Origin: an uncultured Gammaproteobacteria bacterium
GTDB taxonomy: Bacteria; Patescibacteriota; Microgenomatia; Levybacterales; UBA12049
NCBI GenBank assembly: GCA_964610465.1
Contig: CAZSWA010000004.1
Location: 8,365 to 72,364, forward strand
Direction: 5' to 3'
DNA length: 64,000 nucleotides
Below are positions 990 through 16,657 of this stretch, piece by piece; the first letter of the stretch is position 1; every line of letters starts with the position of its first letter. Both the position numbers and the translations under genes were made by a program. The notes beneath the pieces are model-generated. The model did not search any database. It had not been told where the DNA came from and was given only the letters and a program-made list of their open reading frames with translations.

Positions 990-1613
990 CTATTTAGTGT
1001 TTCTTTTAAGAAACAACCCGGCAATTACGGAGAATAACCCGGCAAGAACTACCCCATACAAAAAGATGATATTCCCTGTATTGGCAAGACCTAAAACAGA
1101 TTGTACCGGAGAAGAGCTGTTATTACTCGTTGTATTGTTTGAGGTATTGTTGGTCGTATTATTGGTTGTGTTGTTTGTGGTGTTATTGATAGTATTGTTG
1201 GTGGTCGTATTGCAGGCAAAATTTGAATTTTGTGCTGCATATCTGTCGTCTGATAATCCCCATGCTGAGCCGCTTGGAATATCATACCAACCCTGACTCT
1301 GTAATACCTTTACATCATCGTCTGACAGTTGTGCTACATTCCACCAATTGGTTTGAATACCTTGACCGTTTGGAGGACAAAAACATTGCATATACATGTT
1401 GTTTTCTGACAACTCATATACCATATCACTGCCTTGTACGGTATTTTCATATCCTGGAATTCCATGGTCACCTTGTGTATAACTTACTTTAAGTGTTCCT
1501 TGCGGATTAATACATGATGGGAATGACGGGGTGGTTACGGCAAATGCAGGTCTTGCGAAGACTGCAAAAAGGGGCAGGGTAATAATGATGGTAACTATCT
1601 GCCTGAATTTCAT
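990..1613 (-). CDS. Sortase-substrate surface protein: signal peptide, Cys-containing globular domain, Asn/Thr-rich stalk (NNTTNNT repeats), C-terminal LANTG + TM + KRNTK tail
   Basis: N-terminal signal peptide (AFA|VT); low-complexity N/T repeats; C-terminal 'LANTGN' followed by hydrophobic helix and basic tail = LPXTG-like cell-wall sorting signal. Confidence 0.7.
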   Translation of the reverse strand: MKFRQIVTIIITLPLFAVFARPAFAVTTPSFPSCINPQGTLKVSYTQGDHGIPGYENTVQGSDMVYELSENNMYMQCFCPPNGQGIQTNWWNVAQLSDDDVKVLQSQGWYDIPSGSAWGLSDDRYAAQNSNFACNTTTNNTINNTTNNTTNNTTNNTSNNTTSNNSSSPVQSVLGLANTGNIIFLYGVVLAGLFSVIAGLFLKRNTK

Positions 1614-8991: not shown

Positions 8992-9815
8992 ATAGCGTTT
9001 TGTGTTACCTTTCGCAGTATCTTTCTCATATAAATACCTGATGTCAAAAATGCTGCTTTAAATTCTATAAAACTGTGCGTCCCATCAACTCCCACCCGCG
9101 GAACGAGAAGCGGATTCGTTGATAGAGTAATAAGCTCATCCACTAAAGATAATCCCATTTTAAACCCCGCTTTCTTCACCGCTCTTTGCGCAGGTAGTGA
9201 AAAATAACCCTTCGGATAGGCAAAATAATTAATTTTGCAGTTAAGTTCTTTTTCAAGTTTCTTTTTTGATTGTACTATCTCATAATCAATATCTTTCTGA
9301 GAAATATGTAGGAGATTGGCATGAGTAGCACTATGTGAACCAATTTCCCATCCTGACTTTTGAAGGGTAAGTACTTCTTTTTTTGAAAGAAGCGGTTTCA
9401 TATTATCAAGTTCCTTTCTATTAGGCTTTTGGCTATCTGCAAGTACAAAAAGTATTGGTCTAATACCTAGCTTTTTAAAGTAGTCCTTTGTTTCATACAC
9501 ATCTTTATATCCATCATCAAAAGTAATTACTACTGACTTTCTCTCTATTTTCTTTTGTCTATTTATATATTTATATACATCATCAAGACTTATAAAGTCG
9601 TAATGTTTTCTAAGGTATTCTATTTGAGCCTTAAGTACATCAAAGGGGACAGCAAAACGCCATCTATCCTTTGATATACTGTGATAACAAAGTATTACAA
9701 TTTTATTTTTGTTCGTCAAAATAAGCACTTTATCAAGTAAAAACATACTCGCATACAATGCTTTTCTGGCTTTAAAAAATAACATATTTCTTATAAAATT
9801 TCGTAGAGTACTCAT
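8988..9815 (-). CDS. Polysaccharide deacetylase (CE4, NodB homology domain)
   Basis: 'VVITFDDGYKD' ... 'ILFVLAD' ... 'GWEIGSHSATH' NodB motifs; 4-nt overlap with neighbours (operon). Confidence 0.7.
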   Translation of the reverse strand: MSTLRNFIRNMLFFKARKALYASMFLLDKVLILTNKNKIVILCYHSISKDRWRFAVPFDVLKAQIEYLRKHYDFISLDDVYKYINRQKKIERKSVVITFDDGYKDVYETKDYFKKLGIRPILFVLADSQKPNRKELDNMKPLLSKKEVLTLQKSGWEIGSHSATHANLLHISQKDIDYEIVQSKKKLEKELNCKINYFAYPKGYFSLPAQRAVKKAGFKMGLSLVDELITLSTNPLLVPRVGVDGTHSFIEFKAAFLTSGIYMRKILRKVTQNAI

Positions 9816-12800
9816 GCTTTCTCAGCCTCCATAAAGATAAGATTTTTGAGTAATTCCTGTTGAGCCTGTCCTCTTACTGTATTTTCTATAATGGTTGCAA
9901 ATAAGGTTGCACTTTCATCCCAATCAAAATTCTTCGACCAGACAAATGCATTTCTGGAAAGTGTTTGCAGGTAAAATGAGTCATTGATAAGAAACTGCAT
10001 CGCACTGGTAAAATCTTTAATACTATGAGGCTTGACCAAAATTCCTGTTTTTCCATCCAGTACTGAATCAGATAATCCATTTACTTTTGATGCAATTACC
10101 GGTGTACCTGAAGCATTCGCCTCAATTACCGTAATACCCCAACCTTCAACTTCAGACGGTTGTAAAACTGCCCAGCTTTCGGAAAGAAGTGATGCTTTTT
10201 TCTTTTCATTTACTTTTCCCAGGAAATTTACTTGTTTTTGTATACCCAATTTTTTTACCAGTCTGGTAAGGCTTTTTAATGAATCTCCTTCGCCTGCTAT
10301 GGTAAGTCGCGCAGCTGGAACTGTTTTAAGAAGAAGTGAGAAAGCATTTATAGCAATATCAATATTTTTATAGGGTTTAAGTCTTCCTAAGTAGGCAAAT
10401 GATGGGTAAGGTGTCTTTTGTCCTGGTGTAAATCGTTGAGAATTTATCCCGTTGTAGATTATCTGAATTTGTTGTGAACTTGAAAAGCCCAGTTTATAGA
10501 TTTCCTTTCTTGATGACTCAGACACTGTAATAATGCTTTTATTTTTATACAGAAATGGCATACACTTAGCTTCAAGAAATTCAGCAACCTGAGCCAGCGG
10601 AAATGACAGATACCTTCTAAATACTTCCTGATGCACATGATGCACTACAAGAAATACAGGTTTTTTTACATATAAAGGACTGAAAAAAGGAATTCCATTC
10701 TCACAATCTATTACCACATCAGTTTTTTGCTTGAAGAAAAGAAGGTAATAAATAAATGCCCATATATATACAGTATATGTACCGCCCCTACGGATAATCT
10801 TCACACCATCTATAATCTGATTTCGAGGATTTTCTCCATCATTTCCGCAAAATACAGTTACACTATTACCTTCTTTAACCCATCGTTTGGCAAGTTCGTG
10901 AATATATACTTCAGCTCCTCCAGCCCAGGTATGTTTGATATCTCGCCAATTAAGAATAAGAACTCCAAGCCTTTTGTCGTGTTTGGGTTTACCTGGCTGA
11001 CTTCCTTTAAAACTTAAAAGATCAGCAAGATTAACTTCTACTACTTTCACAAAACGATAGTTAAGGTGCAAAAGCAACATAATTGCCAGATTTAATATCC
11101 CGGTCCATACCATTGCATTGACAATTGCCTGTATATTTGTATGATTTATTTGGATAAGCACGAATTGTAATCCTATCAAAAGGAAAGATGATATAGTTGA
11201 GGTATATGATTTCAAAGAAAGATAGTAAGATACATATACCCGTGAGATAGTAAAACACATGATAGAAAAAGAAAAAAGAGTAATATAAGAAATGATAATT
11301 GCTGCCTTTCCACCAAAAATTATTGGAAGTGTTTGATAACCGAAGACACCAAATACCAGAAATCCAATAAAGCTTAAGGAAAACGTTGCAGCCAATAAGA
11401 TGTAGAGTGTTTTTGTAGAATCTTTTTTGCCTCCTTCATTGCGACTTACAAGTGGTATGACAAACTGAGTAGAAAGACCTCCTAAGAAAAATACCATTTT
11501 GCCAACTAGTGAAATAAGCGCATATTTCCCTGCATCCTCTGCGGATAGATAATGTTTTGCAAGCATAATATCTAAACTCATAAACGCTAAAGTAGAAAGA
11601 CCTGACAATATGGAAGCAAGGAAATAATTATTAGGAAACTTTTTTACTTCCTGCTCATATTCTTTTTTAAGAATCGGGACTTGTTTTCTGCCTACAAGCA
11701 AAAAACTGAGAACAAATGCTAAGACAAAAGAAAGCGGAATAGAAATATACACTAACTCCGGAAGATTCAATTTAACAAATACAAACGCACTAATAAATTT
11801 GATAAAAGGTTCAAAAATAGTAAGGAGTGCGAGAGTTCCAAACATAAATTTTCCATAGAGATAACCCTTATCAACTGAAAATGCAAATCCAATAATCCAT
11901 ACAAAAACAAAAATGACAAAAGGTATAATGCTGTCTGACTTAAAATATTTTACAAGAAACGGTGAGGCACATAACCATAATGCAGAGATTATCAACGCAA
12001 AGTAGAATGAATTTTTGCGAATATGTTTCCAGAAATAAAATGCTGATATTTCTCCGTATTGTCCATCTAAAAATGCGCTCTTATAATTTACCGTTGAGTT
12101 AAGTGCTGCAAAGGGAATATTAGAAATAAATAAAAGGCTTGAAATAAGACTTATGAAACCAAAGTCAGCCAAATCTACTTCCTTGCCAACATATAAATTG
12201 AAGGCGAGATTGAGAACATTTGCTCCAAAACTTGCGACAACAAGAATTCCAGCTGAAAAAAGACCATTTTTAACTGCATTCTTAAAATTCAATTTTTGAT
12301 ATATTCCTGAAAAATCAGGGATAACTGAAGGAACTGGACGTGGCGGCATAAATGGTTTTTGTTGTTCTTTGAGTTTTGATTGCTGAGTCCTTTTTATTTC
12401 CGGTTTTGTCTTAAGATGAAGTCCATGTACTGTTTTCTCCCAATAATGAGGTTTAAAAAGCAGCTGTTGTATCGCAACAAGCGCCGCAATACTCATAAGA
12501 AGCCAATAGAACGGGATAAGTAGTGAATATTTCACCAGTGACCATTGATTTCTTTTGGCACAGCCAATCATGTAGTAATAAAGAAAAAGAAAATTTCCAA
12601 AGACAAAGGCAAAAATTGCCAGATAAAAATAAGGAACAAGGTACAGCGATTCAATGGTTGGTCCAAATATAGGATAAAATCCAAAATACAAAATAGTAAC
12701 AAGCCATAAGAAAGGATTTATCAGAAGAAACGCGAGCTTTCCACCTACAGTCATTTGGAAAATAAGCTCGTGATGCAACCCTTTTTTCCTGATAAATGTC

Positions 12801-14638
12801 CAGGAATTTCTCATATTCACAAGGTACGTCTGCATATAGCCTTTTATCCAGCGTGAACGCTGTCTTAACCAATTAGGAACTTTACTATTCGCTTCCTCAA
12901 GAGTGGTAGAGTCAATAACTGCCGTTTTATACCCTTGCTGGAATAAGCGGGTACCCAAATCCGCATCTTCTGTTACATTAAAAGGATCCCAACCTTGAAG
13001 TTCACGAAGATTTTTTGTTTTGAAATGATTACTTGTCCCGCCAAGAGGTAAGGCAGAATTAAGCGATTGAAGTCCTGTAAGCGTCAAATCAAACCACAAT
13101 GAGTATTCAGCGGTAAAAAAACGGGTAAGGAGATTCTGAGTTGGATTGTAGTAATTGAGCTTTGCCTGCATGCATTTCACATCACCTGGTGCCTTCTGGA
13201 AAGCAATATAGGCTTTCTTAAGTTGAAGTGGATCAGGCATGTCTTCTGCATCATAAATTACAAGATAATCACCTTTGGCAATTGCCAAACCATAATTACA
13301 GGCTTTAGGTTTTGTCTTTGGAGCTGAATTAGGTACTATTACTTTTCTAAAGTAGAAAGGTAATTTCATCTTCTTTATCGTATCTATGGTTTCAATATCA
13401 TCTTCTTCAAGAAGGAGTATTACATCAAGCTTGTTTTTAGGCCAGTCCAGCCTTGAGATAGCTTCAATAAATTGAGGTACTACATGTGCTTCTTTATACA
13501 AAGGACAAAGTATAGAGTAGATAGGAAGTGCAATTTCTGCAATCTCTGCAATTTCCTTATCCTCAAATATAATTTCAGCTGGTTTTCGAAGGCTCCGTAA
13601 GACAACGAATAAGTTAAAAACCGTATCAATAAAATAAATGATACTTAAGACTGAAACAACAATTCGAAGTGTATCAAGTGTATCTGCAATGAACCCTGCA
13701 ATAACTGTAAGAATAATCGTCAGAAGTCCAAGCTGCTGCCAGAAGTTCATTGTTTGAAGCGCAGAAAGATGAAGAGGCAGTGTAGTATGAGTAATATATT
13801 TCTTTTTTTTATAGCCAATACCTGCTCCTTGCATTGAGCTGTATTGTTTAGGTGGCACAATCATAGGAGGCATTTTTTTCATTTTGAGTCGCATAGCATT
13901 TGTTCCTATTTCAAGTGAACTTCTTGTGACGGACACCTTTGAATCCCCATATGCACGCGGAGCAAATACGATATCATAATTAGCAAGGGTAAAACCGGCT
14001 TGACGAGCCCTATGGAGAAATTCAAGATCAAAAGTCCACGCAGATGTAGGCTTAAATTTTATCGTTTCATATACCTCTTTTGTAAATACTTTAAGACCCG
14101 CTTGAATATCATTGGTTAATCCAAACATCATCTTTCCAAAGAGATAACGGAATGCTCTACTGACTGTTCTTCGCACAAATGATTCTTTATTCTTCTCTCT
14201 ATTCGCAACAACCACATCACTTTCTTTTAGCATTTTTACCATGGGGAGAATAGCATTTGGAGGATACTGTAAATCACCATCAATCATAACGAGGATATTG
14301 CCTGTGGCTTTCTGAAATCCTTCAATAAGAGAGTATGCTTTGCCTTTTCTACCTATTTTTCTGTACACTCTGACAAATTTGAGTTTTTGCAGTTTCTTAA
14401 GAATGCTAAACGTTCCATCTGTTGAGTAATCATCAACATAAATTATTTCAAATTGTTTTCCAGTCTTATTAAGCGTCTTTACCAGTTCTTTATGTAAAGA
14501 TTTAATATTATCAGCCTCATTATACAAAGGCACAATAACGCTTATACTTTGGTTTTTTGTGAACACAGTTCTCATCTTTCTCTGTTTCAGGCAGGAATTA
14601 GTGAAGTCTACGATAGTTCTTAATTGGGGAGTATTCAT
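9812..14638 (-). CDS. Giant 1608-aa fusion: GT2 (DPM1-like) + TM + processive GT2 (D,D,D,QRSRW) + MOP/Wzx-like polysaccharide flippase TM domain + C-terminal GT4 (GT-B)
   Basis: 'VIVPLYNEADNI...YVDDYSTDGT...DGDLQYPP'; second GT2 'ILCPLYKEAHV...YDAEDMP...TEDADLG...QRSRWIKG'; ~14 TM flippase-like block; C-terminal 'EGWGITVIEANASGTPVIAS' GT4 motif; uninterrupted ORF. Confidence 0.75.
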   Translation of the reverse strand: MNTPQLRTIVDFTNSCLKQRKMRTVFTKNQSISVIVPLYNEADNIKSLHKELVKTLNKTGKQFEIIYVDDYSTDGTFSILKKLQKLKFVRVYRKIGRKGKAYSLIEGFQKATGNILVMIDGDLQYPPNAILPMVKMLKESDVVVANREKNKESFVRRTVSRAFRYLFGKMMFGLTNDIQAGLKVFTKEVYETIKFKPTSAWTFDLEFLHRARQAGFTLANYDIVFAPRAYGDSKVSVTRSSLEIGTNAMRLKMKKMPPMIVPPKQYSSMQGAGIGYKKKKYITHTTLPLHLSALQTMNFWQQLGLLTIILTVIAGFIADTLDTLRIVVSVLSIIYFIDTVFNLFVVLRSLRKPAEIIFEDKEIAEIAEIALPIYSILCPLYKEAHVVPQFIEAISRLDWPKNKLDVILLLEEDDIETIDTIKKMKLPFYFRKVIVPNSAPKTKPKACNYGLAIAKGDYLVIYDAEDMPDPLQLKKAYIAFQKAPGDVKCMQAKLNYYNPTQNLLTRFFTAEYSLWFDLTLTGLQSLNSALPLGGTSNHFKTKNLRELQGWDPFNVTEDADLGTRLFQQGYKTAVIDSTTLEEANSKVPNWLRQRSRWIKGYMQTYLVNMRNSWTFIRKKGLHHELIFQMTVGGKLAFLLINPFLWLVTILYFGFYPIFGPTIESLYLVPYFYLAIFAFVFGNFLFLYYYMIGCAKRNQWSLVKYSLLIPFYWLLMSIAALVAIQQLLFKPHYWEKTVHGLHLKTKPEIKRTQQSKLKEQQKPFMPPRPVPSVIPDFSGIYQKLNFKNAVKNGLFSAGILVVASFGANVLNLAFNLYVGKEVDLADFGFISLISSLLFISNIPFAALNSTVNYKSAFLDGQYGEISAFYFWKHIRKNSFYFALIISALWLCASPFLVKYFKSDSIIPFVIFVFVWIIGFAFSVDKGYLYGKFMFGTLALLTIFEPFIKFISAFVFVKLNLPELVYISIPLSFVLAFVLSFLLVGRKQVPILKKEYEQEVKKFPNNYFLASILSGLSTLAFMSLDIMLAKHYLSAEDAGKYALISLVGKMVFFLGGLSTQFVIPLVSRNEGGKKDSTKTLYILLAATFSLSFIGFLVFGVFGYQTLPIIFGGKAAIIISYITLFSFSIMCFTISRVYVSYYLSLKSYTSTISSFLLIGLQFVLIQINHTNIQAIVNAMVWTGILNLAIMLLLHLNYRFVKVVEVNLADLLSFKGSQPGKPKHDKRLGVLILNWRDIKHTWAGGAEVYIHELAKRWVKEGNSVTVFCGNDGENPRNQIIDGVKIIRRGGTYTVYIWAFIYYLLFFKQKTDVVIDCENGIPFFSPLYVKKPVFLVVHHVHQEVFRRYLSFPLAQVAEFLEAKCMPFLYKNKSIITVSESSRKEIYKLGFSSSQQIQIIYNGINSQRFTPGQKTPYPSFAYLGRLKPYKNIDIAINAFSLLLKTVPAARLTIAGEGDSLKSLTRLVKKLGIQKQVNFLGKVNEKKKASLLSESWAVLQPSEVEGWGITVIEANASGTPVIASKVNGLSDSVLDGKTGILVKPHSIKDFTSAMQFLINDSFYLQTLSRNAFVWSKNFDWDESATLFATIIENTVRGQAQQELLKNLIFMEAEKA

Positions 14639-14983
14639 AACAGTTTTATTCCAAAACTCATAACTCCCGCATCGTAGAGCTCTTTTCCAATTTTTAAGTT
14701 AAATTTATGTAATAAAAAGTAAAGAAATGGGCAGACAATCTAGAGAATAGACAGGTATCTTACTCCTGTCATTATATATTTATATATAGGCTTAATAAAA
14801 AAGGGGCAGCTTTTACATAATTTTTAAGCCAAATATTATATATAACAGAGCTGGAGCCAAAAGTCAACTATTTGTTATAGAGAAGCTGAGGTTTTCATTT
14901 ATCCCGGTTTGTTTAATATATTATTAGAGGATATAATTCCAGACGCATTCTCTACAAAATTTTGAAGTCTTTGTTTTGCACTA

Positions 14984-16027
14984 TTACCCTTTTGAAGCCA
15001 GTTTATAGTAGCTGGTTTTTGTTTTTCCAAATTTCCTGAGCATTCCTTTTGATACAAGAGATGAGAGAAGTGCATGAGCTTGCTGTCTGCTTACCTTAAA
15101 GGACTCTTCAATATCTGAAGATTTTACTGCCTTTTTATCTATCACAATCTGGAGTACTTCTTCTTCTCTTGGGGTTACCAGTACTCGCTTTTCTCCTTCA
15201 AACTCATCAAGCATAAACCTACGGAGTTCATCAATTCTCCCAATAGCAGACTGCAATGAACTTGCAATTCCTTCCAGGAAATACTCAAGCCATACGGTAT
15301 TTTCACCCGTATCTGCAGTATGCAGCATATCAGAATAGGTAAGTCTATCTACATCATAATAGTCATCAAGAATAAAGTACTTTGAAACTTCATAATGCTC
15401 ACGCAAAAGATAATAGGTAGTAAGAAGTCTTGCCAGTCTTCCGTTTCCATCAAAGAACGGATGGATATAGGCAAATTGATGATGCAGTATCCCTGTTTTC
15501 AGCATAGGATGAAGTTCTTTCTCAGTTGTAAGCCATGTATAAAGCTCAGTTAGTGCTTCTTTTATCTCTTTGGCAGTATGAAAAGGAGGATTGTGTTTGA
15601 CCACATATTCACCGCTTTCTTTATGTCCCACAAAAACAGGACCATCACGCACTGTCCCTAAGTCTTTATGTTCTATACCCTCCATAAGACGATGATGTAG
15701 CTTTTCTGTAAGCTCTACGGTTATAGGTACCTGTTCACGTGCCATATTGGTTAGTGAAGTAAGAACTAGAAAGTAATTTTTAACTTCCCGCTCAGATTTT
15801 GTAGTAGGTATTCTATCTCCTAGAATCACGTTTGTGACATCTTGAGGAGAAAGGGGATTCCCTTCAATACTGGTTGAGTAATGAGTTGCCAGTATCTGGT
15901 TTTCCTGAAAAAGTCGGAGGGTAAGAGAAGGGATGAGTTTTTCTGACTGAATTTGACCGTACAATCTTTCTATTGTACCCAAGGTGTTGAGTATACGGAA
16001 TGTAAGCTTAAATTGAGGCTGAAACAT
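14984..16027 (-). CDS. fic: Fic/Doc family protein (AMPylator-type) with N-terminal inhibitory motif and C-terminal wHTH
   Basis: Canonical 'HPFFDGNGRLARLL' Fic motif; N-terminal 'STSIEGN' = [ST]xxxE[GN] auto-inhibitory helix motif. Confidence 0.85.
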   Translation of the reverse strand: MFQPQFKLTFRILNTLGTIERLYGQIQSEKLIPSLTLRLFQENQILATHYSTSIEGNPLSPQDVTNVILGDRIPTTKSEREVKNYFLVLTSLTNMAREQVPITVELTEKLHHRLMEGIEHKDLGTVRDGPVFVGHKESGEYVVKHNPPFHTAKEIKEALTELYTWLTTEKELHPMLKTGILHHQFAYIHPFFDGNGRLARLLTTYYLLREHYEVSKYFILDDYYDVDRLTYSDMLHTADTGENTVWLEYFLEGIASSLQSAIGRIDELRRFMLDEFEGEKRVLVTPREEEVLQIVIDKKAVKSSDIEESFKVSRQQAHALLSSLVSKGMLRKFGKTKTSYYKLASKG

Positions 16028-16050
16028 AGAGTAATTCTACCATAAACCGG

Positions 16051-16125
16051 TTTATTTGTCAATATATTTGTAAATATAATTGTAAGCTAAACATTTGTAA
16101 GGCTATTTGTAAGTTTATATGTAAA
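16051..16125. repeat. Six tandem ~12-bp repeats, consensus ATTTGTAAr (units start 16054, 16066, 16078, 16093, 16105, 16117)
   Basis: Read directly: atttgtcaa / atttgtaaa / aattgtaag / atttgtaag / atttgtaag / atatgtaaa with 12,12,15,12,12 bp spacing, immediately upstream of fic start (16027). Confidence 0.7.
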
Positions 16126-16127
16126 CA

Positions 16128-16355
16128 TCAGGGGAGAAGTATGCCTCTTATAAACTCACTTATCTTTGACCATGTACAGTTGATAACTGAGCTACAATCA
16201 ATCCTTACTCCTAAGACATTACTTACCTCATGCGTATTATTAACGATAACAAAAATGATAAAAAGCAAAAATAATGGAATTATAAGAATAAGTATTTGTT
16301 GGTAGGTAAACGCAGCTTCTTTCACTAATTGTTTTCTTCTTTTTTTCATGGGCAA
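16128..16355 (-). CDS. Small basic single-TM membrane protein (hypothetical); alternative + strand 53-aa ORF 16141-16302 with SD AGGGGAG is equally possible
   Basis: N-terminal KKRRK then hydrophobic helix; no clear RBS; ambiguous. Confidence 0.25.
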   Translation of the reverse strand: MPMKKRRKQLVKEAAFTYQQILILIIPLFLLFIIFVIVNNTHEVSNVLGVRIDCSSVINCTWSKISEFIRGILLP

Positions 16356-16495
16356 CAGGTACTTATCCAGTATACAATAATTACTTCATTTATTGTCAAT
16401 TATTGAATAAGTTTCTATAAATACTATATCCTCTTGACAAAAATTTTTAAATTTCTCATTATAAATTTATAGTCAAAGAAAGGAGGTCGAAAAGT

Positions 16496-16657
16496 ATGGC
16501 AAAGAGAACTGCCCGTAGAGTACATCATACAAAAGCTCATCATCCTGTACATCACAGATTGCACAAACCTGTAAACAATGTAGTTGGTTATAGTATCATT
16601 TTTGCAGTAGCAGCAATTGTATTGGTAATGGTAATGAGTTTTGCAGGAGCCAACTAA
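16496..16657 (+). CDS. Small His-rich, C-terminally membrane-anchored protein (53 aa: MAKRTARRVHHTKAHHPVHHRLHKP...)
   Basis: Strong SD AAAGGAGG 7 nt upstream of ATG; below the 60-aa ORF-track cutoff; 7 His in first 25 residues then hydrophobic helix. Confidence 0.5.
   Translation: MAKRTARRVHHTKAHHPVHHRLHKPVNNVVGYSIIFAVAAIVLVMVMSFAGAN

Follow-up and report, generated by a model that had tools for sequence, protein, structure and literature searches.

SoFic-type proteins are single-gene anti-phage or toxin modules, which raises the question of how they are kept harmless. We addressed this question at a locus in a 64-kb stretch of DNA (the window) in which a gene for a class II Fic protein of 347 amino acids with a C-terminal winged helix (fic, 14984..16027, minus strand) is preceded by an array of short direct repeats. 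The first-pass annotation of this locus had read the array as a regulator-binding element. Comparison across related loci agrees with this reading, as the register of the repeats is conserved and phased triplets occur solely at fic. It also points to the winged helix of Fic itself, which had been put forward as a candidate, as the best-supported predicted binder, in line with the published precedents of CccR and SoFic.

Two phased triplets and the fic promoter

The six units start at 16054, 16066, 16078, 16093, 16105 and 16117 of the plus strand, with spacings of 12, 12, 15, 12 and 12 bp, 5' of the fic start codon (16027, minus strand), exactly as had been reported. As plus-strand 9-mers they read ATTTGTCAA (16054), ATTTGTAAA (16066), AATTGTAAG (16078), ATTTGTAAG (16093 and again 16105) and ATATGTAAA (16117). 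Read in the direction of fic, the unit has the form TTKACAAWTA with two variable bases after it, and the orientation is identical in all six, with an AC core that is never GT. The layout is that of two triplets, not of the six equal repeats that the annotation had assumed. The proximal operator triplet O1 (16053..16086, minus strand) keeps its exact register across 56 aligned promoters and consists of the units CTTACAATTA (16086-16077), TTTACAAATA (16074-16065) and, closest to fic, TTGACAAATA (16062-16053), which score 11.8, 14.1 and 14.4 bits with a position weight matrix. The distal triplet O2 (16092..16125, minus strand) lies 39 bp upstream of O1, measured unit to unit, and comprises TTTACATATA (16125-16116), CTTACAAATA (16113-16104) and CTTACAAATG (16101-16092). 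Tandem Repeats Finder likewise called two 12-bp arrays, at 16053-16085 and 16093-16124.

The phased clustering of the units, and not the frequency of the 9-mer, is the non-random part of this pattern. The lone 9-mer is not enriched in the 64-kb window, with 91 matches at up to one mismatch vs 94 expected. In-phase chains of three units at 12-bp spacing, scored with the weight matrix, occur twice in the window, both times at the fic array, and not once in 200 dinucleotide-preserving shuffles of it; when periods from 8 to 16 were tried in the window, a triple appeared at 12 only. The annotation had named a genome-wide AT-rich low-complexity pattern as evidence against its reading, and the data do not bear this out: although the single motif occurs at chance frequency, the phased triplets are found only upstream of fic. 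Neither of the geometries suggested earlier fits the array. Relative to a 10.5-bp helix, a 12-bp period advances each unit by about 51 degrees, which is not one helical turn along one DNA face, and phased A-tract curvature requires A-tracts at about 10-11 bp and conservation confined to A/T runs, whereas the units here recur every 12 bp without deviation and conservation is strongest at a C. A pseudo-palindromic dimer site (TATTT-AC-AAATA) was also considered and rejected, as positions 11-12 are unconserved and the AC core is strictly oriented. Scanning the window with Rfam at gathering thresholds and with a tRNA search returned no RNA gene, and the array is therefore not part of one. Elsewhere in the window, an open reading frame (990-1613, minus strand) contains tandem repeats of 12-, 24- and 36-bp periodicity (GTATTGTTGGTG...) at 1121-1212; they have no relation to the fic array and probably encode a repeated segment of a surface protein.

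The annotation had seen nothing to suggest another role for the array, yet a promoter close to consensus has its -35 box in the proximal unit. A promoter scan placed the -35 hexamer TTGACA at 16057..16062 (minus strand), within the proximal unit of O1, and, together with the aligned loci, an extended -10 element TGgTAGAAT at 16034..16042 (minus strand); separated by a 17-nt spacer, the two match the sigma-70 consensus at 11/12 positions. The unit closest to fic has C/G (TTGACA) because it doubles as the -35 hexamer, and TTGACA occupies the -35 position in 55/56 aligned loci. The -10 element ends 6 nt upstream of the ATG, as it does in about 40/56 orthologous loci, and no Shine-Dalgarno sequence precedes the fic ATG. 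The fic mRNA is therefore predicted to start at the A of the ATG (start codon 16025..16027, minus strand), and judging by this distance it is probably leaderless. Four loci (L018, L023, L034 and L055) carry insertions of 40-110 bp between the fic promoter and the ATG, which disrupt the leaderless arrangement. They have terminal inverted repeats (e.g. GTCATTCTGA...TCAGGATGAC) and are MITE-like in appearance, and in L034 the -10 box is apparently duplicated at the insertion.

Conservation of the operator and its linkage to fic

A genome scan recovered 63 loci, mostly from MAGs of Levybacteria, Curtissbacteria and other Patescibacteria. Nearly all of their upstream regions share the order triplet, 17-nt spacer, TATAAT, 6 nt and ATG, and an alignment of 56 promoters, anchored at the -35 box, yields the consensus tTTACAAttAnn TTTACAaATAnn TTGACAAtTAan. 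Across these 56 promoters, the highest information content (2.1-2.5 bits) falls on the C and exceeds that of the -10 hexamer; positions 9-10 of the unit (TA), well beyond the hexamer, are conserved as well, and nothing upstream of the O1 triplet is conserved in fixed register. In all chains detected in the related loci, chain length is exactly three units. Adding metagenome loci to the genome loci brought the collection to 108 non-identical fic promoters, mostly from Levybacteria and other CPR, with proteins that are 45-78% identical, and the proximal triplet is present in exact 12-bp register in these 108. A second triplet lies upstream in 37/108 (34%), so that the distal block accompanies about one third of the orthologous promoters. 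Offsets between O1 and O2 cluster at 41 bp (n=9) and 48-51 bp (n=16), with the others scattered; a single helical phase between the triplets was rejected in view of these two offset classes (about 41 and about 50 bp) and the scattered values. Four Curtissbacteria-type loci have the triplet one unit further downstream, which places a unit inside the -35/-10 spacer and fits a repressor site.

The pattern is tightly linked to fic. We counted 2 phased triplets in the window (64 kb) and about 70 across the related loci (366 kb); all are upstream of fic and on the fic strand, and none was found away from fic in the same sequences. For contig scans we used the operator pattern TTACAWWWANNNTTACAWATANNTTGACAA, which had 0 matches in viral contigs and 81 exact matches in metagenome contigs. 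In 67/81 a fic homolog lies directly downstream of the match on the same strand, its start usually 29-31 nt past the pattern. Among the 14/81 without fic downstream of the match, 3 have only 18-143 nt of sequence beyond it, too short for a call, and the other 11 were inspected. In L091, L110 and a second site of L072, the pattern is inside a 359-aa open reading frame and codes for LTNTFTNILTIL; in L072 a fic gene with an operator of its own lies 4.7 kb away, and these coding-region matches could be chance or a secondary site. The match in L113 is a look-alike palindromic operator of a Phd/YefM antitoxin, and its near-duplicate L107 is among the 3 short fragments. The L081 match lies upstream of rpL1 in an A+T-rich genome, and several of the 11 have no downstream open reading frame. 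L099 (reverse strand, site 1738 of the reverse complement) has a triplet and a TATACT -10 box before a 122-aa Bro-N/RhuM-like open reading frame, with fic absent within 650 nt, which reflects either promoter capture or a second target.

No other gene shares this linkage. When open reading frames within 1.5 kb of fic were clustered in 57 loci, no family occurred in >11 loci, and the families that recur near fic reflect synteny among close relatives. Since no flanking family is conserved, the array is co-inherited with Fic and with no other protein. In the window, a 1608-aa glycosyltransferase (two GT2 domains and GT4/GT1, many transmembrane segments; 9812-14638, minus strand) lies directly downstream of fic, and the 345-bp gap between the two contains a promoter-like site, TTGACT-17-TATATA. 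Upstream, a 73-aa open reading frame with a KKRRK N-terminus and one transmembrane helix (16128-16349, minus strand) ends in a stop codon that lies 3 nt away from the distal unit of the operator; were this a genuine gene, transcripts reading through its end would run into the operator. On the plus strand there are a small open reading frame at 16141-16305 and, divergent from fic, one of 53 amino acids at 16496-16657 (MAKRTARRVHHTKAHHPVHH..., then a transmembrane segment; 16434-16657 with upstream signals). The latter is preceded by a strong Shine-Dalgarno sequence (AAAGGAGG) and a promoter of the form TTGACA-17-CATTAT, and is not a called gene on the public contig. None of these three small open reading frames has a Pfam match or homologs in 148 loci, which argues that the array belongs to fic and not to them.

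The Fic protein and its candidate recognition helix

The window protein has both sequence signatures of a class II Fic. The inhibitory motif (S/T)xxxE(G/N) is present as STSIEG at residues 51-56 and is invariant across homologs, in agreement with the earlier assignment to class II with an SxxxEG inhibitory helix. The catalytic motif HxFx(D/E)GNGRxxR is present as HPFFDGNGRLAR at residues 189-200, and H189, F191, D193, G194, N195, G196, R197 and R200 are invariant in 36 homologs. The Pfam Fic domain is matched at E = 3e-18, and residues 285-341 match the TrmB, MarR_2 and Penicillinase_R winged helices weakly. Relatives of the protein number in the thousands at 67-78% identity. The PADLOC SoFic profile covers residues 7-341 (E = 3e-55), and the score of 78.7 bits against the NCBIfam SoFic equivalog NF046030 is below the cut-off of 550. 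By profile scores, the window Fic is a distant SoFic-family member and not an ortholog of SO_4266. Sequence matches in the PDB include SoFic (3eqx, 3zcn), CccR (7xux; E = 7e-15) and CbFic2 (8cil), and Foldseek aligned an AlphaFold2 model of the protein (mean pLDDT 75) over its full length with 4rgl, CbFic2, SoFic, a Fic protein of M. marinum and CccR (3eqx, 7xux and 8cil among them). The protein is thus predicted to be a SoFic-type AMP-transferase, like SoFic, CccR and CbFic2 in its domains.

According to the model and the translation, the winged helix-turn-helix comprises residues 283-347 (coding region 14987..15181, minus strand). It is canonical in the AlphaFold2 model, with helices at 286-298, 303-310 and 314-326 and wing strands at 330-333 and 340-343. 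The recognition helix, SRQQAHALLSSLVS (residues 314-326 in the model), is coded at 15050-15091 on the minus strand by a translation check. The helix V(S/T)RQQ(A/G)H..L..LV is constant in 51/51 full-length proteins with a window-type operator, and R314, Q315, Q316 and H318 are invariant both in these 51 and in 36 homologs. It is kept even in a Roizmanbacteria/Microgenomates subgroup that is 45-48% identical and whose winged helix has otherwise diverged, and in a six-frame translation of the window the motif occurs once. The locus and its more than 100 orthologous promoters provide a sharply delimited operator open to testing, in which TTKACAAWTA x3 merges with the -35 box of a probably leaderless promoter; SRQQAH is the candidate recognition helix.

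Distant homologs of the same Fic-winged helix architecture (27-30% identity), from Bacteroidota and a G+C-rich bacterium, differ from the window protein and its operator both in the helix and in the array. L063 combines the helix SSRSIY with an array of TTTAATTACAC (x5.5, period 11, at 1489-1548), L059 the helix KNRSTY with an array of period 11 (x5.1, at 2920-2975), and the G+C-rich L061 the helix SMRMAA with an array of CTCGATTATGG (x4.5, at 2932-2981). These arrays have about 5 units with an 11-bp period and lie directly upstream, and their unit sequences are unrelated to that of the window. The recognition helix and the repeat sequence therefore appear to co-vary between clades, over few independent contrasts. 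Within the main clade there is no residue-by-base co-variation, and the RQQGH and RQQAF variants track no operator change.

Known systems offer both likenesses and differences. CccR of Yersinia pseudotuberculosis, a Fic protein with a helix-turn-helix domain, represses its own promoter through sites at the -35/-10 boxes, and its operator is an inverted repeat, AGATAATCAT-N26-ATGATAATCT, bound by a back-to-back dimer (PMC9755527). It resembles the window system in combining Fic with a C-terminal helix-turn-helix domain and in having, like the window array, a repeated motif that overlaps the core promoter of its own gene. In contrast, an inverted repeat of the form 10-N26-10 differs from the three (or 3+3) head-to-tail 12-bp units of the window, the sequences are unrelated, and CccR is a T6SS effector while there is no sign of a T6SS role for the window Fic. 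SoFic (SO_4266, Shewanella oneidensis) has the inhibitory N-terminal helix, Fic core and winged helix in the same order, although the window protein is only about 19-24% identical to it. As a dimer, but not as a monomer, SoFic binds its own promoter specifically, within the 100 bp that precede the start codon (bioRxiv 10.64898/2026.07.09.737422). The fragments listed in Table S2 of the same preprint cover 298 bp of SoFic upstream sequence, in which we found ATGTCGAT five times: on the plus strand at -107, -68 and -28 (39 and 40 bp apart) and on the minus strand at -137 and -57, the -68/-57 pair forming the palindrome ATGTCGATTGAATCGACAT. The copies occur in both orientations and form no phased triplet as in the window, whereas the 39-40 bp between direct copies resembles the offset between O1 and O2. 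We suggest that ATGTCGAT is probably the SoFic operator.

Two other relatives were compared with the window locus. E. coli Sofic has a downstream antitoxin, AS1 (PMC12249575), which is without a counterpart here: 14638-14984 contains no convincing open reading frame for an AS1-like protein, and no conserved small open reading frame adjoins fic in the other loci. CbFic2 of Coxiella burnetii, a Fic protein with a winged helix and a top structural match to the window protein (8cil), has no known operator. Through its helix-turn-helix domain it binds host chromatin irrespective of sequence, and this DNA binding controls both its dimerisation and which of its two activities, AMPylase or deAMPylase, prevails (PMC10628234).

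Proposed autoregulation and competing explanations

Given these observations, we consider it probable that the winged helix of Fic binds the units upstream of its own gene, that O1, when occupied, blocks the -35 box of what is in itself a strong promoter and thereby brings about negative autoregulation, and that O2 adds cooperativity. The locus would then be a self-contained single-gene module, in which a sigma-70-type, near-consensus and probably leaderless promoter drives fic and the C-terminal winged helix of the product occupies the tandem TTKACAAWTA units. Since O1 spans -59 to -26, the -35 hexamer included, its occupancy should exclude RNA polymerase, and negative autoregulation would keep the amount of a potentially toxic enzyme low and buffered. 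O2, 39 bp upstream, may assist as a secondary operator, with cooperative or bridging contacts increasing occupancy. We infer both Fic as the binder and repression rather than activation, from sequence comparison and from analogy with CccR and SoFic. The exclusive linkage to fic, the lack of any other conserved partner gene and the clade-level co-variation of helix and repeat count in favour of Fic as the binder. As SoFic and CccR form symmetric dimers, three head-to-tail sites are not the expected substrate, and this counts against it; a simple one-face version is further opposed by a 12-bp period that is not a helical repeat and by offsets between O1 and O2 that vary (39-41, 48-53 and others), and an operator used by Fic only by about 11 metagenome matches that fic does not follow, among them L099, where the site drives another gene.

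Tandem sites are familiar from other winged-helix proteins. OmpR/PhoB-type winged helices bind head-to-tail direct repeats that adjoin or replace the -35 box, showing that a winged helix can read tandem sites. These proteins are response-regulator activators that use a 10-11-bp spacing at weak promoters, whereas the window promoter is near-consensus and the period 12 bp. Among partition systems, pBtoxis has two blocks of 12-bp tubC repeats, and in R1 the parC repeats lie on either side of the promoter. TubR is a small winged-helix DNA-binding protein that acts on direct-repeat blocks just upstream of its own gene, much as we propose for Fic, and occupancy of tubC represses the operon promoter (PMC6009700). 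In contrast to fic, where no partner NTPase is present, the TubR-tubC and ParR-parC arrays serve in partition together with such an NTPase (TubZ or ParM), and the proteins are unrelated to Fic; the likeness lies in how the array works and is not one of family membership. In the literature we came across no earlier account of Fic genes with operators made of tandem direct repeats. Since autorepression by CccR and binding of SoFic to its own promoter have been published, we read the window array as a new operator layout of a known kind.

Several other explanations of the array deserve consideration. The units could be bound by a different host-encoded transcription factor, with fic as one member of its regulon, and both the oddity of direct repeats as a substrate for a symmetric Fic dimer and the few matches near other genes, such as the Bro-N/RhuM-like open reading frame of L099 or the coding-region matches of L072, L091 and L110, would be accommodated in this way. 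We regard such a factor as unlikely, since there is no other triplet in the window or in 366 kb of flanks, 67/81 metagenome matches are at fic, the array accompanies fic through unrelated contexts with no other gene conserved alongside, and in distant clades the array sequence changes along with the Fic recognition helix. Equally, the array might serve no regulator at all and belong to the promoter architecture, either as an UP-element-like or curved A+T-rich tract or as reiterated -35-like hexamers that recruit RNA polymerase. Every unit is indeed -35-like (TTTACA or TTGACA), the region is A+T-rich at the location of an UP element, and the promoter scan returned a weak promoter-like match, CTTACA-17-TATATT, within the array. 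However, a 12-bp period does not sum bends in phase, conservation peaks at the C and includes the TA at positions 9-10, well outside the hexamer, and no such triplets occur at other promoters in 430 kb of these genomes. The variable distance of the distal triplet, the unit inside the spacer in four loci and the G+C-containing unit CTCGATTATGG of G+C-rich distant homologs speak against promoter architecture as well, making this explanation improbable.

It is harder still to view the array as the iterons of an origin of replication, as partition sites resembling centromeres or as the recombination sites of a fic-carrying mobile element, and we consider this highly improbable. Blocks of short direct repeats are also seen in iterons and in tubC/parC (PMC6009700), and the varied contexts of fic are those expected of a mobile cassette. 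Yet no rep, par, integrase or transposase gene is conserved beside fic, the neighbours in the window are a sortase and the glycosyltransferase, viral contigs contain no match, and the array is in register with the -35/-10 boxes and the start codon, which indicates a transcriptional constraint.

Autoregulation by Fic, the reading we favour, would bear on how the gene travels. Our results suggest that promoter, operator, repressor and effector lie within about 1.15 kb, and such packing would explain the movement of fic between CPR genomes, which carry few regulators. It is also conceivable, but rather unlikely, that the phased triplets are more than a repressor site and set the oligomeric state of the enzyme as an assembly platform, for example with three dimers bridging O1 and O2 (39-41 bp apart). 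Fic might then be switched between AMPylating and deAMPylating states, as in the DNA-induced dimerisation of CbFic2, and the chromosome-bound pool could represent a safe, latent defence toxin that is freed or activated when infection disturbs DNA binding. If such a platform exists, iteron-like tandem operators would be a family-wide rule for SoFic-type genes. Beyond the clades described above, plasmid homologs from Aeromonas, Microvirga and Pantoea (25-29% identity) each have their own upstream repeated motif, as judged by eye only, and some signs point to a wide spread of tandem arrays among SoFic-type genes. The comparison thus points to arrays in other clades, and to ATGTCGAT as the predicted site of SoFic.
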